Positions 874-59,570 of a stretch of DNA of 64,000 bases are shown one piece after another (position 1 is the stretch's first letter; each line of letters starts with the position of its first letter). Origin of the DNA: Rhina ancylostomus (lineage: Eukaryota); NCBI GenBank assembly GCA_030265395.1, contig JARFYF010000046.1, positions 10,628,797-10,692,796 on the forward strand, given 5' to 3'. The notes under the pieces were generated by a model. The model was not told the origin of the DNA. It worked only from the letters and a program-made list of their open reading frames with translations, and made no database searches. Position numbers and translations under genes: made by a program.

Positions 874-1008
874 AGTCCAGATGAAGGGTCTTCACTTGAA
901 ACGTTGACTGATAATTTCCCTCCATCGATGCTGCCTGACCTGCTGAGCTCCCCCAATGTTTTGTGTGTTGCTCCAGATTCCAGCATCTGCAGGATCTTGT
1001 GTGTCTCC
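874..1008 (+). mobile_element. Penelope pLTR-derived repeat with degenerate hammerhead
   Basis: AGTC-CAGATGA-AGGGTCTTCACTT-GAAA-CGTT-GACTG, followed by the same tail as 57027-57131. Confidence 0.7.
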
Positions 1009-6564: not shown

Positions 6565-6790
6565 GACTTCAGATGCCGAAACTCTGAAACAAAAGCAGAG
6601 AAAGCTGGAAAAGCTGAACGGGTGTGGCAACATCTGAGGAGAGAAAGAGTTAACGTTTCAGTTGATGGCCTTTCAACCAAACTCAGTCTGAAACATTTAT
6701 TCTGTTTCTTGCTTCACAGATACTGCCTGGACTGCAAAGCATTTCCAGTGTTCTCTGGTTTGATTTCCAGCAACTGCAGGGCTTTATGTT
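6565..6790. mobile_element. Older inverted pair of pLTR-derived repeats
   Basis: Left half resembles the reverse complement of the family tail (gttaacgtttcag); right half is forward (ctgaaacat...cacagatactgcctg...ccagcaactgcag). Confidence 0.5.
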
Positions 6791-8526: not shown

Positions 8527-8812
8527 AGAATAAGACATCTTTATTAGTGGCATGTACATTGAAACACTCAGTGAAATGCATCTTTTGCGCAGAGTGTTCT
8601 GGGGGCAGCCCTCAAGTGTTGCCACACTTCCGGCACCAACATAGCATGTCCACAACTTCCTAACCCGTACGTCTTTGGTATGTGGGAGAAAAGCAGAGCA
8701 CCCGAAGGAAACCCACACAGTCACAGGGAGAACATACAAACTCCTTACAGATTTGAACCCCGGTCACTGGCGCTGTAAAGCATTATGCTAACCGTTATGC
8801 TACCATGCCTGT
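8527..8812 (-). mobile_element. V-SINE/HE1-like SINE
   Basis: Reverse complement of the 52068 family. Confidence 0.85.
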
Positions 8813-9720: not shown

Positions 9721-9998
9721 TCCCCAGCTACCCGTCCCCATCGACCCGGCTCCCATCTACCCGTCCCCATCTACCCGTCCCCATCTACCCAACCCGTATC
9801 TACCCATCGCCATCTACCAGCCCCATCTACCCATCCCCATCTACTCAACCCCTCCTCCACCCATCCCCTTCTACCCATTCCCCCATCTATCCGTCCACCA
9901 TCTACCCGTCCCCATCTACCTGTTCCCATCTACCCGTCCCCCCATCTACCCGTCCCCCCATCTACCCGTTCCCCCATCTACCCATTCCCCACCCCCCA
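9721..9998. repeat. Minisatellite, ~14-bp unit CCCCATCTACCCGT
   Basis: Many imperfect tandem copies directly visible; abuts an N gap. Confidence 0.92.
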
Positions 9999-10214
9999 TA
10001 TCTGCTGCTCATGTCCTGGAGGAACTCCCACGCATGAGTGGGACATGCTTTCTGCTTCACGAACGTGGAGTCTCCTGGATGCTGAGCATTCCTATAACGC
10101 TGTGTGTGGGGGCAGAGTGGGGGAGACTGGGGAGGATAGAGTGGGGGGGGAGAGGAGATGATGGGTGTCAAAAAAGAACTACCCATTCTCACGGAGCACT
10201 TGTTCCTGGGTGCT

Positions 10215-15689: not shown

Positions 15690-16710
15690 TAATCACAATA
15701 CCTTGTCATTTAATGGATTATTGTGTGTAATATCCACCATCTTCAATGAGATTCCACCACTGATATTCAAGTTGTATTTCCTCTTTTCTCTAAAGATGCG
15801 GACATCTTCCCCTTCCCTGTCAGCATTCTGAAGGCACTGTTCCCCATGTGGTTCCCTGGACCTCTCTTCCCTTTTTACCATCCACTCCCCGTCCAAAGGC
15901 AACAACAGGAGATACAACACATGTCCTTTTACCTCATCCCTTTCCACCACCCCGGAACCCCAACAATCCTCCATGCTGAAGCAACAGATCACTTGCACTT
16001 CTTCCAACCCAGTGTATTTTATTCGGTTCACCATGTTGCTGTTCTACATTGGAGAAAGCAAGTGCAGATTGGGTGACCACTCTGCAGATTCCTCTGTTCT
16101 CTCTGCCTTCAATGAGCTTTCAGTCATCTGTTACTTTGATTCTCTATCCCACTCCCATTCTGTCTTTGGTCCCCTACACCATCCCAACAAAACCCAATGC
16201 AAGTGCGAGGGACAGCACCTTATCCTCATCTGGGCACATTGCATCCCTTGGGACTTAATAGGGAATGTAATAATTTTGTGTCAGAACTGACCAGTACTAA
16301 TGCAAGGTCACCCACCTGTAACTTAGTTTTTCTCACTCCGCAGATGCTGCCTGATCTGCTGGGTATTTCCAGCAATCTCTTTTGCTTCATATTTTATGCA
16401 ACTCAGTTCCAGCACATTCTTTCATTTCTTTCCCCCCTCTCCTTAATAGCCCTCATTCATCTATGAACTGGACAGCTCCAAAAGCATTGTGTCACCTGTT
16501 CTCCAACCTAGCATGGACAGTCACTGTGATCGCTCCATCCCTCTCCCTCTCTGCAACTTAAAACACACTTACTTCCTCACTTTTAATAAAGGGTCTTCAA
16601 TCCAAAAACAATAAACTCTTGTTCCCCTCTCCACAGACGCTGTGGGACCTGCTCAGTATTTTCAGCGTATTCTGTTCTTATTTTCGATTTGCATCAATCA
16701 GCCTTTTTGA
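15690..16710 (+). mobile_element. Degenerate Penelope-like retroelement with GIY-YIG endonuclease relic and two terminal-repeat remnants
   Basis: ORF 15973..16290 reads ITCTSSNPVYFIR...FYIGESKCRLGDH, matching the PLE GIY-YIG pattern TCxSxNVVYxIxC...YIGETxRxLxxRxxEH. Remnants at ~16300-16390 and ~16580-16700 resemble the hammerhead-associated repeat. Confidence 0.8.
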
Positions 16711-22879: not shown

Positions 22880-23040
22880 AAAGCAAAAAACAAACAGCTG
22901 AAGGAACTCAGCAGGTCGAGCAGCATCTGTGGGGTGAGATGAATAGTCCAGTGGTATGCTGTAAATTGACCTGCTTTAGTTCTTCTGGTAGTTCATTTTT
23001 TGCGACAGATCCCAGCATCTAAAGTCTCTTCCGTCTCCAT
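22880..23040. mobile_element. Inverted pair of pLTR-derived repeats
   Basis: gctgaaggaactcagcaggtcgagcagcatctg followed by tgacctgct...cagatcccagcatct. Confidence 0.55.
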
Positions 23041-25049: not shown

Positions 25050-25749
25050 GGCAATGAGGAACCCCAAATTAGGTATGTCCCCGATGAACTTCACCAATTT
25101 TTACAGATGCAGCATAGAAAGCATCTTATCCGGATGCTTGGTATGGCAACTGGTCTGCCCAAGACTGAAAGAAGTTGCAGAGAACTGTGAATGCAGCCCA
25201 GTCTATTATGAAATCCAGCCTCCCCTCCATTGACTCTGTCTGCACTTCCCGCTGCCATGGGAAAGCATCCAACATGATCCGAGATTTCTCCCACCCCGAT
25301 CATTTTCTCTTCTTCCCTTAGGCAGAACATACAAAAGTTTGAAAACACGCATCACCAGGCTCAAGGACAGCTTCTATCCTGCTTTTATAAGACTCTTGGG
25401 CAGACAGTTTGCACGATAAAGATGAACTCTTGATCTCTCAAACTACCTCGTCGTGGCCCTTGCACTTTAGTTGTCTGCCTGCACTGCACTTTCTCTGTAA
25501 CTGTAACACGATATTCTGCATTCTGTTAGTGCTTCTCCTTTTGTACCATCTTGATGCAGTTATGTATGGAATGAGCAACAAACAATCTGCTGGAGGAACT
25601 CAAGAGGGTCAAGCAGCATGGATGGGAGGAAATTAATTATTGACATTCTGGGTCAAAACCCTGTATCAGGACTACGATCTGTCTGGGTGGCATGTAAACA
25701 AAAGCTTTTCATTGCATCCTACTACAATGAGACAACAATAAACCAATTA
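25050..25749 (+). mobile_element. Rex1/Babar-type LINE 3' fragment, interrupted by a minus-strand pLTR repeat (~25575-25675)
   Basis: LGMSPMNFTNFYRCSIESILSGC is typical of the Rex1/Babar RT C-terminus. Also CACCAGGCTCAAGGACAGCTTCTATCC and a tail ending in AATAAACC. Confidence 0.75.
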
Positions 25750-30731: not shown

Positions 30732-31007
<276 letters not shown>

Positions 31008-48044: not shown

Positions 48045-48215
48045 TAGACACAAGAGACTGCAAGTGCTGGAATCTGGAGCAACACATAAAGCACTGAAGG
48101 ATCTCAGCGGGTCAGGCAGCATCTATGGAGGGAAATGGATGGAAACGTCGACTGTCCATTTCCCTCCATAGATGCTGCCTGACCCACTGAGTTCCTCCAG
48201 TGCTTTGTGCACTGT
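48045..48215. mobile_element. Inverted (fold-back) pair of Penelope pLTR-derived repeats
   Basis: Arms 48088-48139 and 48155-48206 are reverse complements (52 bp, 3 mismatches). The loop contains GAAACGTCGACTG. Confidence 0.8.
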
Positions 48216-48339: not shown

Positions 48340-48460
48340 TGGAGACTCAAGAGACTATAGATGCTGGGAGCCGGAGCACAAAACAAACAGCAGGTCAGGC
48401 AGCATCTGGGAGGGAAATGGACAGTCAACGTTTCAGGTCAGGACCCTTTGTCTGGACTTC
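48340..48460 (-). mobile_element. Penelope pLTR-derived repeat with degenerate hammerhead
   Basis: Minus strand reads AGTC-CAGACAA-AGGGTCCTGACCT-GAAA-CGTT-GACTG plus the family tail. Confidence 0.65.
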
Positions 48461-48512: not shown

Positions 48513-48752
48513 TGTGGCACGGTAGCATAGTGGTTAGCACGATACTATTACAGCTCCAGTGACCTGGGTTTGATTCCCGCCGCTGCCTGTAAGGAGTTTG
48601 TACGTTCTCCTGCGTCTGCGTGAGTTTCCTCTGGGTGCTCCGGTTTCCTCCCACATTCCAAAGACGTACAGGTAGGTTAATTTGGGGTTTAATAAATGGG
48701 CGTTGTGGACTTGTTGGGCCGGAAGAGCCTGTTACCACGTTGTAAATAAATT
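48513..48752 (+). mobile_element. V-SINE/HE1-like SINE
   Basis: Same head and V-domain as 52068; tail TTGGGCCGGAAGAGCCTGTTACC. Confidence 0.85.
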
Positions 48753-51681
48753 TTTTTTTAAATTTTAAAAATTCAAAATCATTTCGATAATGTTGGTTGA
48801 GGAATAAATATTGGCAGGCTCAAACCACTCCTCCACTTAGATAAATGTCATGTGATCTTTTACAAGCTCTTTAAAGTGAGACTCCAGTTTAAAATCCCAT
48901 TTGAAGGATCGCACGTGCAACAGAAGTGGGGGTGTGTGGCGGGTGGGGGGCTGAGGAGGGTTCCTCACCGCTTTGTACTGGAGAGTCAGACTAGATTTGA
49001 ACCATATCTTCCAGCTCAGAGGCTACAATCTGAGGCACAGTCAACATATAACACAAAGGGCACTTGTGGCCACATTTCTCCCTCTCTCAGGGACCCTTCA
49101 TGAACCCTCATTAAAATTCCAACTCAAGATATCGGCAACCCTGGTGATTCCCTGTAGTTAATTGAGCTATGGGAGGCTTTCACAGAAGATCGATGCCTTT
49201 GTTGAATTTCAGCTCAGACCATCCAAACTCGCCTTGGATGGCTGCACTGATACCAGAAAGTGAAACACCCTGCGCTGAATTCAAGATCAGTTCCCAGTCC
49301 ATCCACCACGCAGCACAAGGCTTTAGTACGATCTGGTGTGATGGCATGCTCATAATTTTCCCCACCACATCCATGTGACCCTGTTTGAAGGCAAAGAGAA
49401 TTTAGCCATTGCAACCAGAAGTATCTCACTCAGGGTGATGCAACCGGCCCTGCGACACTGGTTCGATCCCTGCATGAGGCCATTCAGCCCACTGAATTTT
49501 TGCCAGCTTTTGTTTCAAGAGCCATTCAGTCAGTCTCACCCCCTCTGCTCTTTTCCCTAAGCCCCCATTGTTATTTGTACCTTCAACTGTTCCTTTTGGA
49601 GAGCCACAATTGAATTTGGATCCACCCCACTTTCAGGCAGTGTGCACCTGATCATAAGTGCTTACTGCATTTCAAAAAAATATTTCCTGATATCGCCCCG
49701 TGTTAATCACTTCAAACGTGTGATCTCTGCTTTTGGTGAAATATATTCTGTTAGCCTTAAAACTCAATTTTGTTGATATTACTTGTGCTTCATGTACTCT
49801 GACCTTATAACACTCTTGAAAAATGCAAGGAATATTTTTGCAATGTTTTAAGTGGTTCAGGTATAGCTGTAAACCCCCTAGAAATTGTCAGCCTAAACTG
49901 GATCTTCCAAATACACTACAACCATGTGCGACCTCTGGATTTAGAGTCCTGAACTAAATTTCTTAAAGTTCTTTATGTTCATAAATGTACATCTTGATTA
50001 AAATACAGATTTTCTGCTGCTTTTATTCATTTACAGTTGCAACTAGAAAAAAACCCCGACTGCAGCCTGCAGCCATTTGGCAATTCATTGTCACTATCCA
50101 ACGAACATATTCCTTTGATCTTCTATTCAACATCAGCCAAGCTGGACTACAGAGCCTGTGGCAAAACAGTACACAGGCAAGGCTAGGACCTCAGCAGAGG
50201 CAACAGCAGAAGTAAAACCAGCTCACAGAAGGGAATATATTTTCATGCCTCCTCTTTTTAGCCATTTAAATGATTTCTTTGCAGAGAGAGTGAAAGATGT
50301 TTCCCGTATAAAACGGAAGACTACAGTAACTCAAACCAAAAGGAAAGAAGAAAGAATGCATCAAAAAAGCCAGTATCAAGAAAAAAAACAGAAGCCATTA
50401 GCTTAATTCTGACAAAGCTACTGGCAAAGTTAGAGTTACAAAACGCATGAAACTCAATCTTATAAACCTTGTTCTGATAAATACATTGAGCTATCAATAA
50501 TTGACAATAAAAACTGGTAAGATTAATGAAGTGACATTTCTCTTACATTAAGAGTGTTAGCTGAATATCAGAGGACTTTGTTCTCTTACTTGACCTGTTG
50601 AATGAACTCTAAGACTCCAACATGAAGAAGGAATTTAATTCACAATGGAATACCCTTGATCATTACAATTCACATTTCTGTCCCACAATCCATTTTCCTC
50701 TCCTCTGTACATTGCTGTGCACCTTCTGCTATACTTCAGCCATCTACTTCAAATTTTGGCTTCACAATGTTCAACTTTAATGAGGAAACTTGAGCAAAGG
50801 CTAAAAATTCATCTCCAGGTCTACCTTTAAAAGAGAAAAGATCCCAAAACAGACCCCTCTATTTAAAATTAAAAGCTGAAAAAGACTCTGATGAACTCAG
50901 TCATTCATCTTTCTGACATTCCTGTTGAGCTTCCTTTGCATAACTTATGCTATCTTGAGTCACTGATTGAATCATCTGAGGGACCACATCAATACTAGTG
51001 ATCTTCTGATCTTTCTGTGATGCCACCGATCCACAGTGACCCTGGATTACCTTTGTTCCAGGGAAGAATTAAAGAACTGAACTGCTACTATCAAACAGAG
51101 TAAAAGATAATCTCTAGATATTAAACCAGAACAAAATACCATTAGTTATGGACTTCCATGGCAACTTCTCCCAAAGATTGCATCAGTAATCACTCATGAG
51201 CCACCTTATGTACCAGGTATCTGTTACAGGGTGAACTCTTTGTTGAACTATCAAACTGGCACCAAGAAGTGGTGGTAGGAAGGGTTGGAGTGAAGAGTTG
51301 GGGATGGGATACTGACACATTAAGAGATAATCTAAGGGAAGCAGTGGACCTGAGCTGGAGGTGTGTGGATCGATGGTAATTCCTTGGGTTTAGGAATCAA
51401 AGAGCATTTATGTCAAACTTTACATCAGGAGATTAAACAGGTGGAACAGACTCCAGGATGAATAGATCGTTTCACCTCTGATTCAACAGTCTTCATGTTT
51501 TCTCTCCAATTATTGACCAATGTGCATAGTAATTGATCTTGGATATATACTGGGTCTGGGTCAGAGATTATAACTATTTCCCTGGACATCATGTGAGCAG
51601 AAAGCTCATTTTAACCTGAAAACTGGGGAACACACAATATGATTGCAATGATGGAACTTAAATTGTTTCCCTCATTCTTAC

Positions 51682-51813
51682 CCGCGGTGGTCGGTGTTGG
51701 ATCCGCGCCCGCGCCACTTTCTGCTTGTTAACAATGTTCATTAATCTCGCCGCGTCAACACCCTTGACGTAAACCACAGGCCGTTTCAACGGGTCCTCTG
51801 AGCCTTGATTCAA
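51682..51813 (-). CDS. ZNRF3: ZNRF3 coding exon (exon 4 equivalent), PA domain end: [44 protein letters not shown]
   Basis: 132 bp, phase 0/0. TTTGCAG|TTG ... CGG|GTAAGA. ZNRF3-specific peptide. Confidence 0.97.
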
Positions 51814-52067
51814 CTGCAAACAAAAAGCCACATCAGCCTGGATAGGTAGCATTTGCAGCAAAGTAACAGCACAATGGATCAGAGGTGCAAGTAAACCGAT
51901 GGTACAGTGCAATAGCGAGACGTTGGACAATACAATCAGTATGAATTGGTTAAATCAGCAATGCTAGCAATACGAGCACATAGGTCAGAAACTTAAATCA
52001 CTTTCACTCTGCCACTGGTCATCAGAACTGTGCTGGTAGTTAAATTCCACGTGCCCCTCTTCCAATG

Positions 52068-52372
52068 TGGGTGGCACGGTATTGTAGCGGTTAGCGTAAT
52101 GCTATTACAGCGCCAGTGACCCGGGTTCAATTCCTGCCGCTGTCTGCAAGGAGCTTGTACGCTCTCCCTGGGTCTGCGTGGGTTTCCTCTGGGTGCTCCG
52201 GTTTCTTCCCACATGCCAAAGCCCTACAGGTTAGGAGCCGTGGGCATGCTACGTTGGCGCCGGAAGAGTGGCGATACTTGTGGGCTGCCCCCAGCACATT
52301 CTCAGTAATGCAGAAAGACGCATTTCACTGTGTGTTTCAATGTACATGTGACCAATAAATAAATATCTATAT
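52068..52372 (+). mobile_element. tRNA-derived V-SINE/HE1-like SINE (young)
   Basis: A-box-like TAGCGGTTAG, B-box GGGTTCAATTCC, V-domain GCTCCGGTTTCTTCCCACA, tail ending AATAAATAAA. Confidence 0.88.
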
Positions 52373-55300: not shown

Positions 55301-56858
55301 GACAGTTCTTAGGCCTAGTTGTAAATCTTGGATTAATTTTCTGTTCCTCATTGTAATTTAGCCCTGGGTCTCTGACTAGTTCAAACTGTTCCCTTCAACA
55401 TTTGCCATTCCTGTCCAGACAGCAATACCAGTGTTTACCTGGAGGGGTGGAGACCTTTTCAACATTGGGTATTACAAAGCAGCCAAAAATAATGCATAGA
55501 GGAATTTGCAGACTCCATGGTTTCTTGCCGCCCAGCACATTCCAATGACAGAGATTGAAGGGGCCTGGGAGACAAGAGCAGCGCCTGGTGTTTTACTGAC
55601 TTTTTTGTGATCGACACGGTGCACTGCCTCAGCCTCTGTTGGCTGCTGCTCATTTAATATCTTAAAGAAACACACAGGGAAACATTTGCAAATGCAACGG
55701 CTGTTTGCTCTGGGGGGGGGGTGTTGGTTTATGTAACAGGCTAACATTTACAATTCATCCAAGAAAGTTTAAAAAGGATGAGAAAAAAAATCCCTGGGCT
55801 CCTTTTCTAGTCTCTGGCAGGTTTGAGTGTCGTGACAACTGCACTTACAGCCAATGGAAGGGAGGTGTTTCCAGGGTTACCATCTCCATCTCTTTCTTAC
55901 TGCCCTCTATGTGCTAATGTTGAGTAAGGGTAGAACCCTGATTCTGTTTGACTCTATCACACACGTGTGTGTGTGTGGTCACTGGTTCTGTTTGCATATA
56001 TCGCTCATCTTTAATTGCCCCAGAAGGTGGTACCGAACGTTCATCTTAAATACCTGTACTGTGTGTGGTTGGGTCAGGAGCTCTGTGATTATGCCCCAAT
56101 GCTGATGAAGGNNNNNNNNNNNNNNNNNNNNNNNNNNNNNNNNNNNNNNNNNNNNNNNNNNNNNNNNNNNNNNNNNNNNNNNNNNNNNNNNNNNNNNNNN
56201 NNNNNNNNNNNNNNNNNNNNNNNNNNNNNNNNNGCTCATTTAGAAGATGCTTTCAAAAACTCTGAGAATTTTGCAGTGTACTTTGGATATGGCACACACT
56301 TCAGACATGGTTTGAAGGAGGCAGAGGGTGTGAATGTTTAACCTGGTGAAAGGGTGCCAGTCAATCCAGGACCGGGTTCGAGCTTTGGGACTGAGTCACG
56401 CAGTCATTCAGCACTGAACCAGGCCCCTTGGACCACTATGTCCATGCTGACCACTGCAAATCCATTACACTAACTTCATTTACCAGCATTTGGTTCTNNN
56501 NNNNNNNAGCCCTGCTGGAGCTTCACTCATCCAGGCAAATGCAGTATTTTTCCTCACACGCCTTGTATCTGTGCTTAGGCATGAATACAGTCACCCATTA
56601 GACTACTGAATGTGACTAGGGTAGGACTTTCTCAGTGAACACTGGGGCCCTGGGGAGTGTTGTAGAACAGAGGGACCTAGGAGTACAAGTACATGGCTCC
56701 CTGAAAGTGATATCACAGGTAGACAGGGTGGTGAAAAAAGCATTTGGCATCCTGGCCTTCACCAGTCAGGGCATTGAATATAGGAGTTGGGACGTTATGT
56801 TNNNNNNNNNNNNNNNNNNNNNNNNNNNNNNNNNNNNNNNNNNNNNNNNNNNNNNNNN

Positions 56859-57131
56859 CCCCACCCACCCACCTACCTTCCCCCTCTCACCTGGACTCAC
56901 CTATCACCTGAACTCACGTATCGCCTGCCTGGCTGTGCTCCTCCCCCTCCCCCCACCTTCTTATTCTGGCTCCTGCCCTCTTCCTTTCCAGTCCTGATGA
57001 AGGGTCTCGGCCCGAAATGTCGACTGTTTATTTCGCTCCATGGGTGCTGCCCGACCTGCTGAGTTCCTCCAGCACTTATTTTTTGTGTGTGTTGCTCCAG
57101 ATTCCAGCATCTGCAGGATTTCTTGTGTGTC
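56859..57131 (+). mobile_element. Penelope-like element 3' end / pLTR fragment nested inside a CR1 LINE
   Basis: Pyrimidine-rich leader, then the hammerhead, then the CTGCTGAGTTCCTCCAGCA...CCAGCATCTGCAG tail. CR1 RT sequence stops before it (EYRSWDVM) and resumes after it. Confidence 0.7.
56989..57026 (+). ncRNA. Minimal type I hammerhead ribozyme motif in a Penelope-like terminal repeat
   Basis: CAGTC-CTGATGA-A-GGGTC-TC-GGCCC-GAAA-TG-TC-GACTG. Stem I is CAGTC/GACTG, the core boxes are intact, stem II is GGGTC/GGCCC, and cleavage is predicted after C57021. Confidence 0.75.
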
Positions 57132-58658
57132 CTGGAGTAATGTGTACAGTTTTGGTTACCCTGTTATCGGAAAGACATCACTGAGCTGGAAAGAGTGCTA
57201 AGAAGGATTACGAGAATATTGCCAGGACTCGAGGACCTGAGTTATAGGGAGAGGTTGAGCAGGATAGGACCTTATTCCTTGGAGTGTAGGCGACTGAGGG
57301 GAGTGCTTATAAGGGCCATAGATGGGGTGAATACACACAGGCTTTTTCCCAGGGAAAGGGAATCAGAAACTAGAGGGCATAGGTTTAAGGTGAGAGATGA
57401 AAGATTTAAAAGGTACCCTGAGGGGCAATTTCTTTACGCAGAGGGTGGTAAGTACATAGGATGAGCCTCCAGAGAAAGTAGTTGAGGCAGGTACAATAAC
57501 AACATTGAAATGATATTTGACAGGCAAATGGATAGGAAAGCTTTAGAGGGATATGGGCCAAATGCAGGTAAATGGCATTAAAAAAACGACTAGCTTAGAT
57601 GGGCATCTTGGTTGGCATGGATAAGTTGGGCTGAGGGGCCTGTTTCCATGCTGTATTACTCGATGACTCTCTGACTACTGGGAGTTGTGATCAACCATAC
57701 AGACTTTCTTTATGCAGGGAACTGAAATATTAGTCCATGTCTGGACACTGTATGGACACTCTTGGTTCATCATGTAAAGAAAAGAACATTACTTTGTAGT
57801 CGATGTACTTTTGAAATGTAAAAAAGAGGGCAGTCAATTTGTGCACAGCAAGCTCCCACAAACAGCGCTACAATGAAGATCAGATAATCATCTTTAGAAC
57901 AGATGAATGGAGAGGGAGATATTGGATGGAAAATCAGGGTTAACTCCTCTGCTCTTCTCTAAAATGGTGCCGGGGCATCTTTGCGTTCAGGGAGCAGATT
58001 GGTGAATGGATGCTTTGATTTTATTTCGATGACTATTTCTCTGTCTTGCTGTCTTGCAGAGATTTATCTCTTGGACAAGCTCTGCTCTGGCCCACACACA
58101 TGACTGGATTCCATCACACATTCGTCAGCCACCTCGAGGGTGATGTTGCCCATGTGCCTGGATTACATCACACAGCACAGTTCCAGCACTTAGCGATGGG
58201 TTCTGGACAATGAGATTAAGACGAATGAGTGCCCACTGGTCGGCCTGGATGTGGTCGGTTGAATGGTCAGCTTCCAAGCTGTACGATTCGATGGCTCCAT
58301 GATGCCCCTTTGCTTCTGCCATTTGGATTTGAATTGGGTAAATGCGTGACCTCAATGGGACACGCCGTCAGCAAACACTGAGGCACAACCCTATAAAAGG
58401 TATTCACCCTCTGCTATCTTATGTAAANNNNNNNNNNNNNNNNNNNNNNNNNNNNNNNNNNNNNNNNNNNNNNNNNNNNNNNNNNNNNNNNNNNNNNNNN
58501 NNNNNNNNNNNNNNNNNNNNNNNNNNNNNNNNNNNNNNNNNNNNNNNNNNNNNNNNNNNNNNNNNNNNNNNNNCTGTAATGAGCATATTTGCTTCTTTTA
58601 TGTGTCGGGCTTGGCTGGGCGACAATGTATCGGCCAATGGTGAGAATGCATCTCATAC

Positions 58659-58733
58659 CTGGTCAATGGCGTCTGGGTTTTCAGACACGTCAAAGATGAC
58701 AGCTGTCGCTCCTCTCTGGACTGCTCGCTTTGC
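58659..58733 (-). CDS. ZNRF3: ZNRF3 coding exon (human exon 3 equivalent), PA domain: [25 protein letters not shown]
   Basis: 75 bp, phase 0/0. Minus strand reads TTTTCAG|GCA...CAG|GTATGA. Peptide nearly identical to vertebrate ZNRF3 as recalled. Confidence 0.96.
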
Positions 58734-59570
58734 CTGAAAAACAAAGCACAATGTTCCTGAGTACAAAGTACATTTCAAAAAGGAAGACAGTTCAACTGCA
58801 GTAGNNNNNNNNNNNNNNNNNNNNNNNNNNNTTTTCTCCAGTACGATATATGGCAGAGGCAATAATGTTGCCTCAGGCAAGACAGTCCAGGCCGTTATAG
58901 GAATACAATCAGCAGCAGATAAGCCTTTCTCTCTTTTCTTTCTGCCCTGTTCCTTCTTGAGGAATTCTTGCTTCTATCTTCGTTTGGTTATGTAGGTTGC
59001 TGAGGTAAATGTAGAAGGATTGTCACAAATGTGCTACAAAGCCAGGATTCTTAACAATTAAATGCTGCCCTAATAGCACGCACCATGCGTGGGAGAAGCT
59101 AGGTGAATGAACTGTTGGCAGATCATCTCAATATTGCTTTGATACTGGGTGCCAAGGACAAACAAGGAAGATTCTGGGACATCTCCTTGTCCCTCCTCCC
59201 TGTGAGAAAACAAAGCACCAGTGTTCCTATACAACACAGTAATGGAGGTGCTGATCCACAGGACAAGTTGACTCCAGTGCCATTCTTCCAAACCTTTAAC
59301 CCTCATTGATAACCCAACCCAGCTCTCTCCTGTAAATCCCATGGTAGACAATCCTCTGCCCCCTTGGTATCCTTAACTTGTAAGCATTGAGAGCCAACAA
59401 TACAGCCTCATTGAGTCTTCACAAATTCAGACTTGTCTTTGCGATAATACTTCAGAATAACTCACTTTGCATGAAGTGCTTCAGTGTGGATCTGGGAAAT
59501 GTGGTGAAAGCAAGCATCCATTTTCTTTTCAGCAGGGGTTACCAGTTAGTGAACAAGAGTATCGCCTCCC

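Follow-up and report, generated by a model that had tools for sequence, protein, structure and literature searches.

An antisense minimal hammerhead motif in a ZNRF3 intron of Rhina ancylostomus is likely the worn 3' end of a Penelope-like element

The ZNRF3 Locus and the Insertion Site

The window analyzed here is a 64-kb stretch of the Rhina ancylostomus genome that carries part of a ZNRF3-type gene on its minus strand. Two ectodomain exon frames were recognized with Pfam, at 58656..58802 (minus; ZNRF_3_ecto, E = 8.5e-09) and, next in the gene, at 51661..51954 (minus; ZNRF_3_ecto, E = 1.2e-12), and a RING exon was recognized at 30732-31007 (minus; Pfam). A hammerhead motif at 56989..57026 on the plus strand falls in the intron between the two ectodomain exons, the first of which lies upstream of it in the sense of the gene. 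Because the ectodomain and RING exons are all on the minus strand, the motif is intronic and antisense, which bears out the orientation proposed in an earlier, sequence-only reading of this DNA. Two further upstream exons are found ~67 kb and ~188 kb past the window end, and by their motifs these probably belong to ZNRF3 as opposed to RNF43. Copies of the motif-bearing repeat family that lie below ~17 kb in the window are probably outside of ZNRF3.

The motif is carried by a fragment at 56859..57127 (plus), the readable part of a 5'-truncated 3' end (UTR or pseudo-LTR) of a Penelope-like element that measures ~300 nt overall. Its 5' junction sits within a run of N just upstream, and for that reason the target-site duplication of the insertion is unreadable. 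On either side lie the two parts of a single host repeat, the left one at 56601..56801 (plus; recognized by sequence comparison, with no Pfam match) and the right one at 57128..57660 (plus; joined to the left by 22 collinear left-right pairs in other introns). Empty copies of this host repeat have ~28 nt where the window has 326, and thus the Penelope-like insertion interrupts an older repeat. The latter is probably a CR1-like LINE remnant.

Anatomy of the Motif

At 56989..57026 (plus), the sequence reads as a minimal type I hammerhead, as first reported. Stem I consists of 5 bp formed by CAGUC (56989-56993) and GACUG (57022-57026), and the core comprises CUGAUGA (56994-57000) with an extra A at 57001, GAAA at 57014-57017, and the triplet GUC at 57019-57021, after which (57021) cleavage is predicted to occur. 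While these elements were placed correctly by the sequence-only reading, the 5-bp stem II that it drew (GGGUC/GGCCC) was not recovered; the minimum free energy fold, which retains the 5-bp stem I, gives a stem II of 4 bp (GGGU/GCCC) capped by a CUCG tetraloop, the energy model not permitting the 2-nt loop that a fifth pair would leave. Helices I and II are closed by G10.1-C11.1, and the core CUGANGA plus one extra nucleotide, the GAAA, and an NUH triplet are all in place. No intramolecular stem III is formed within the motif.

What would take the place of stem III is a 4-mer that reads AUGU in the window copy (57017..57020, plus) and the palindrome ACGU in the family form, the difference being a C>T change at a CpG (57018). 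This agrees with the earlier observation of ACGU in sister copies at 901-904 and 48145-48148, which was confirmed in the sequence. The self-duplex energy is +2.6 kcal/mol for AUGU versus -1.7 kcal/mol for ACGU, and dimer self-pairing of the window copy is thus weakened by the substitution. The palindromic positions 15.2/16.2 are accordingly present at the level of the family, in which 369 otherwise intact ACGU motifs are found genome-wide when the loop is left free (control, 0), but absent from the window copy. The 38-mer with the palindrome has 65 exact occurrences genome-wide (control, 0). Changes at the palindrome site follow CpG decay.

A structural descriptor of core and stems returned six matches in 1.40 Mb searched on both strands, one of which is the window copy, and none in reversed and complemented controls, which puts the arrangement well above chance expectation. 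Thermodynamic and covariance measures are less distinctive. The folding energy of the motif is not significant (z = -1.31, with 17 of 200 shuffles folding equally well), the stem pairing probabilities of the window copy fall to 0.09-0.27 when flanks are included, and an Rfam scan of the window gave no hammerhead family at E <= 10 and eight unrelated weak matches. Of 154 family copies, 48 have C-G and 44 have U-A at pair 2.1-1.1, a split that runs along subfamily lines; this compensatory change probably reflects a single evolutionary event and hence lends weak covariation support. Changes in stem II are one-sided only, and loop 2 varies among the copies.

The Parent Penelope-Like Element

The 30 best DNA matches to the fragment have ~140 nt in common downstream of the motif start and vary in length upstream, and 29 of the best-scoring relatives share the same 3' end. 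In longer copies, the motif is preceded by a pyrimidine-rich stretch of ~300-340 nt and then, going upstream, by the end of a GIY-YIG endonuclease, beyond which a CX4CxxC linker and reverse transcriptase (RT) motifs are found. GIY-YIG motifs with CCHH were read upstream of the 3' repeat in five loci (L018, L064, L065, L067, and L275). In L275, RT motifs, the CX4CxxC linker, GIY-YIG, and the hammerhead follow in that order within ~2 kb. The Penelope origin put forward in the sequence-only reading is therefore supported by a single locus that joins all four features.

Pfam gave weak support: GIY-YIG matched 1 of 11 peptides (E = 0.0009, under the cut-off) and none of three in an earlier set, and the Pfam RT families matched none of the endonuclease and RT fragments. 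The DKG, LPKIH, GxAMG, and YIDD motifs were located by pattern, and we take LPKIH, GxAMG, and YIDD to be Penelope-type RT motifs. DKG is named as such for Penelope-like RTs by Craig et al. (2021; PMC8557442). The linker between RT and endonuclease, CX4CxxC in both L064 and L275, is of the CX2-5CxxC type and, by the definition in that paper, would place the element with Neptune or Nematis, an assignment made from the linker that keeps the two clades together.

The element resembles the endonuclease-bearing Neptune or Nematis elements in this linker and in its inverted partner copies, a layout that has been described for Penelope-like elements (Craig et al., 2021; PMC8557442), although no full-length copy was recovered here. 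Head-to-head pairs are common, with 129 of 329 profile matches having an opposite-strand partner within 300 nt. A full-length copy with two pseudo-LTRs was absent from the five long loci, several of which are broken at runs of N. Separately, 125 of the 329 alignments in the intron sample start between -15 and +4 relative to the first base of the core, a clustering that may reflect either a truncation hotspot or divergence of the subfamilies upstream.

Most copies are short, as could also be the case if they were units of a retrozyme or SINE-like family that is non-autonomous, and not truncated autonomous elements. Retrozymes are known to derive from Penelope ends, animal non-LTR retrozymes carrying type I hammerheads of that origin (Li, Clavereau, Pollet, 2026; bioRxiv 10.64898/2026.07.22.740005), and a tandem run of bare motifs does exist in this genome (L252, described below). 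Nevertheless, the copies have ragged 5' ends that pass without a break into sequence of the endonuclease and RT, and the window copy is a solo end, unlike retrozymes, which are tandem repeats with a hammerhead in each unit. We therefore consider a retrozyme or SINE-like origin unlikely.

Taken together, our preferred reading, to which we give a probability of roughly 85%, is that the motif marks the 3' end, with its hammerhead, of a truncated Penelope-like copy inserted in a ZNRF3 intron in antisense orientation, where it is likely carried along as an inactive passenger, that the parent element likely worked as a dimer, and that this copy would not cut the pre-mRNA. In the parent, two motifs in one RNA would pair their ACGU palindromes to form helix III, with cleavage proposed by analogy to the published Penelope hammerheads; the dimer would then cut after GUC, so that the element transcript is processed. 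The window copy itself would not be expected to cut ZNRF3 pre-mRNA because it lies on the opposite strand, has no nearby same-strand partner, and has lost the palindrome.

Abundance, Age, and Preservation

The size of the family was estimated from a sample of introns from nine genes that amounts to 1,399,205 non-N bases. Profile matches numbered 246 in a first round, 329 in a second (reversed-sequence control, 0), and 333 with four subfamily profiles, a density of ~238 ends per Mb in the sampled introns. The very abundant ribozyme-bearing family that had been anticipated is thus borne out. Extrapolated to the genome, this would amount to ~5x10^5 related ends if introns of long genes are representative, and the ZNRF3 locus itself, holding one worn copy among them, has little significance.

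Relative to the majority of 30 near copies, the window copy differs at 9 of 229 non-CpG and 3 of 10 CpG sites, where the others average 5.4% and 29%; these divergences are underestimates, as the relatives were chosen for their likeness to the window copy. At the near-relative rates, ~8% of copies are expected to carry at most one change in the 38-mer, and the near-intact state therefore needs no selection. Such good preservation is likely to be expected of a fairly young subfamily in which neutral decay is slow. Across the family, non-CpG catalytic columns are slightly less changed than the tail (188/1592 vs. 719/4853), a difference that can be caused by selecting copies that align over the motif.

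These figures bear on a possible domestication of the window copy, by which it would regulate either ZNRF3 or an antisense RNA. Its core and both stems are intact, and domesticated intronic hammerheads do exist in amniotes (RECK and others; PMC6155905), with which it shares the type I architecture and a position in an intron of a vertebrate gene. Those, however, are single conserved canonical motifs, whereas the window motif is minimal, belongs to a high-copy repeat, is antisense, and has no canonical helix III. Its palindrome is broken, its stems pair poorly when flanks are included, and its preservation is inside the neutral expectation, all of which make domestication highly improbable.

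Sister Copies in the Window

There are 11 profile matches to the family in the window. Earlier, at least five motif copies had been counted (874, ~25640, 48142, 48422, and 56989); the number has to be raised, and the copy at 48142 is only a half motif. It forms part of a head-to-head pair of half copies at 48049..48209 that has neither CUGAUGA nor stem II. The other profile matches comprise a copy at 874..1003 (plus) that has ACGU but in which stem II is damaged and core position 4 is A; an old, decayed head-to-head pair at 6567..6788; two old decayed copies in direct orientation at 16288..16674 (plus); a tail-only copy at 22888..22950 (minus) that has no hammerhead core; and two decayed copies that are sense to ZNRF3, one at 25568..25673 (minus) with C at position 9 and one at 48348..48459 (minus) with core damage at positions 4 and 8. 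No second intact motif in tandem with the window copy occurs among the 11 matches, and the closest profile match on the same strand is a half motif 8.7 kb away.

The two sense copies, at 25673 and 48459, are damaged, as the sequence-only reading had noted. Damage is equally present on the plus strand, in the copies at 874, 6682, 16288, 16583, and 48125. Two other repeats were seen in the window. One is an abundant SINE-like family (48514-48760, 52071-52359, 8540-8778, and 1196-1400) whose head was judged tRNA-like by eye and which served as a strand control. The other is a C-rich minisatellite with a unit of 14-16 nt at 9722-10007.

Strand Distribution in Introns

It had further been suggested that sense-oriented copies are preferentially damaged, leaving an orientation bias of intact cores. 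Gene spans and strands in the intron sample were taken from exon matches to the ZNRF3, glypican, and laminin-G families, and all nine regions show an excess of T over A in the assumed sense direction, nested genes not being excluded. All copies together are distributed 117:129 sense to antisense in round 1 (p = 0.48) and 151:178 in round 2 (p = 0.15). Of the 149 motif-spanning copies of round 1, 66 are sense and 83 antisense, and the 12-position core is intact in 7 and 10 of these, respectively (p = 1.0); stratification by subfamily of the 171 motif-spanning copies of round 2 gives odds ratios of 0.99 (p = 0.82) for the core and 0.72 (p = 0.48) for G12. The suggested bias is thus not supported by this sample, in which almost no copies were dimer-competent. 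A weak sense-damage effect remains compatible with a test of this limited power (confidence interval of the odds ratio for intact cores, 0.26-2.7).

Two apparent strand differences in the motif were set aside. Pooled G12 retention in copies with a canonical core differs by strand (21/36 sense vs. 41/49 antisense, p = 0.013), and this reflects confounding by subfamily: antisense copies make up a larger share of the older, non-CpG subfamily, which mostly retains G12 because CpG is absent there. Since stratification abolishes the excess (p = 0.48), it was dropped. Strand-asymmetric CpG decay was likewise rejected, as none of the eight CpG positions of the motif differs by strand after stratification; in the control repeats, p was 0.50 for the SINE-like family and 0.03 on three columns for the CR1-like family.

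That intact motifs cut the host pre-mRNA, with selection removing or damaging sense intronic copies, nonetheless finds some favor in the raw counts. The strict descriptor matches comprise one sense and five antisense copies (p = 0.22; 1:4 if the window copy is left out), and motif-spanning copies of the older subfamily are distributed 24:47 (p = 0.009), as compared with 44:50 for the rest of that subfamily, which lies outside the training set (difference, p = 0.11). The control repeats show no such skew (SINE-like 92:80, CR1-like 235:238), two SINE-like counts (92:80 and 91:80) that appear to be one family having been counted once. Against this, neither core nor G12 differs by strand once stratified, the group that includes the window copy is unskewed (35:43, p = 0.43), and monomers were not cleaved in the published test (Cervera and De la Pena, 2014; PMC4209133). 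Moreover, mean core changes in the older subfamily are 1.54 sense versus 1.74 antisense (p = 0.61), and with no strand difference in damage, its antisense skew is unrelated to core damage. The only descriptor match that has the palindrome along with both stems is the sense one. Selection against host cleavage is therefore improbable. Instead, the null result suggests that pre-mRNA tolerates minimal hammerheads when they stand alone, which is consistent with a requirement for dimers.

The mild skew of the old copies could alternatively be real and stem from splice-acceptor-like or other RNA-processing signals as opposed to the ribozyme, an explanation compatible with our preferred reading. Solo matches are distributed 85 sense to 115 antisense (p = 0.04), and the older subfamily is distributed 68:97 (p = 0.029, post hoc among several tests), with antisense exceeding sense in seven of nine genes and a more pronounced skew in its solo copies (41:71). 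By sequence, a candidate splice acceptor consisting of a pyrimidine tract and CAG is predicted at 56975..56991 (plus), where it overlaps the 5' strand of stem I. The YAG is retained in 27 of 30 near copies, with a mean of 14 pyrimidines in 15, and 26 of 35 old copies have similar predicted sites further downstream. In mammals, transposons within introns are known to be biased toward the antisense orientation. The 5' end of helix I coincides with the end of the intron in the Penelope element of Drosophila virilis (Cervera and De la Pena, 2014; PMC4209133). Younger groups with similar sites are unskewed, however, and the grouping was made post hoc; we thus regard an RNA-processing origin of the skew as possible and somewhat doubtful.

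RNA reads from organism A, possibly a different species (three raw runs, with more than half of the reads less than 90% alike, and one contig set), cover the element in both directions, and no pile-up of molecule starts or ends on the element was seen in them. With the strand convention of the libraries uncalibrated and the reads dominated by expressed loci, G12>A was counted at 223/851, 278/1069, and 460/2043 in first-mate-plus and at 164/1331, 215/1402, and 533/2550 in first-mate-minus reads. RNA depth in the same reads steps up at 56990.

Relation to Known Hammerheads

Minimal hammerheads (min-HHR) were described in the pseudo-LTRs of metazoan Penelope-like elements by Cervera and De la Pena (2014; PMC4209133), who found no cleavage of a single minimal motif and low cleavage of dimers and trimers, and who proposed a role in processing of the element RNA. 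The window family shares with them the CUGANGAH core, the extra nucleotide after A9, G10.1-C11.1, GAAA, the lack of helix III, a location at the 3' end, and, at the family level, the palindromic positions 15.2/16.2. Nearly identical in layout is the Neptune motif of Acropora digitifera (their Fig. S3), which likewise has a 4-bp stem II and a tetraloop. Where it departs from that class is in the window copy having no palindrome and in sister subfamilies having C9 or A4. The family is thus a member of the min-HHR Penelope class, from which the window copy deviates in the palindrome only.

Cartilaginous fish are absent from the table and alignment of that study. In the open literature, with subscription papers and Repbase/Dfam outside the scope, no report of hammerheads in shark Penelope elements or chondrichthyan genomes was found, and neither was any study of hammerhead strand bias. 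The retrozyme preprint introduced above did sample one chondrichthyan, with a positive result, and reports depletion from introns in Xenopus; the words 'antisense' and 'orientation' do not occur in its main text, which reports no strand test (bioRxiv 10.64898/2026.07.22.740005). Related chondrichthyan families may be listed in its supplements.

Subfamily Core Variants and Tandem Units

Some core changes characterize whole subfamilies. In one cluster, 22 of 42 copies have A at position 4, and because A is the majority letter there, the A4 of the window copies at 874-1003 (plus) and 48348-48459 (minus) is a subfamily trait, not damage specific to those copies. Two further clusters carry C at position 9 in 38 of their 41 copies. 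This C9 subfamily (CUGAUG-C-A-G; L251-L270 and, in the window, 25568-25673, minus) contributes 72 of the 333 ends in the intron sample without strand skew (41:31), and 79 otherwise intact copies were found genome-wide, with UUCG most often as loop 2. Two C9 ends lie downstream of endonuclease remnants, at distances of 221 and 676 nt, which weakly suggests, by their arrangement, an autonomous parent for the subfamily.

Neither C9 nor A4 occurs among the 56 motifs of the Fig. S3 alignment, for which the descriptor required a canonical core (PMC4209133), or in the text of the core-variation section of PMC3088659, and a whole-word search of the literature, with subscription papers outside the scope, found no report of an A9C hammerhead. 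We tentatively raise the idea, with more doubt than confidence, that the C9 subfamily carries a working natural variant of the hammerhead core; if so, the subfamily would have spread to ~10^5 copies in spite of the C9 change, or of a shift of the extra nucleotide to the 5' side of A9, and would escape standard descriptors. Should the C9 core not cleave, it would show instead that a working ribozyme is dispensable for the spread of a Penelope lineage. In either case, the subfamily core variants constitute a natural series for whether Penelope elements need ribozyme activity to spread, a question left open in 2014 (Cervera and De la Pena, 2014; PMC4209133).

Among the 65 perfect motifs and 100 listed of the 369 ACGU motifs, the only close pair is that of L034 and L035, two perfect motifs (the C7 pair) 170 bp apart. 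Because its two motifs lie on either side of a 100-N gap whose flanks are duplicated, this candidate for a natural dimer was discarded as probably an artefact of scaffolding. A natural tandem array was seen only at L252 (1390-1570, minus), a run of five bare hammerhead units of ~35 nt, four of them C9, variously decayed, with an inverted copy ~120 nt upstream.
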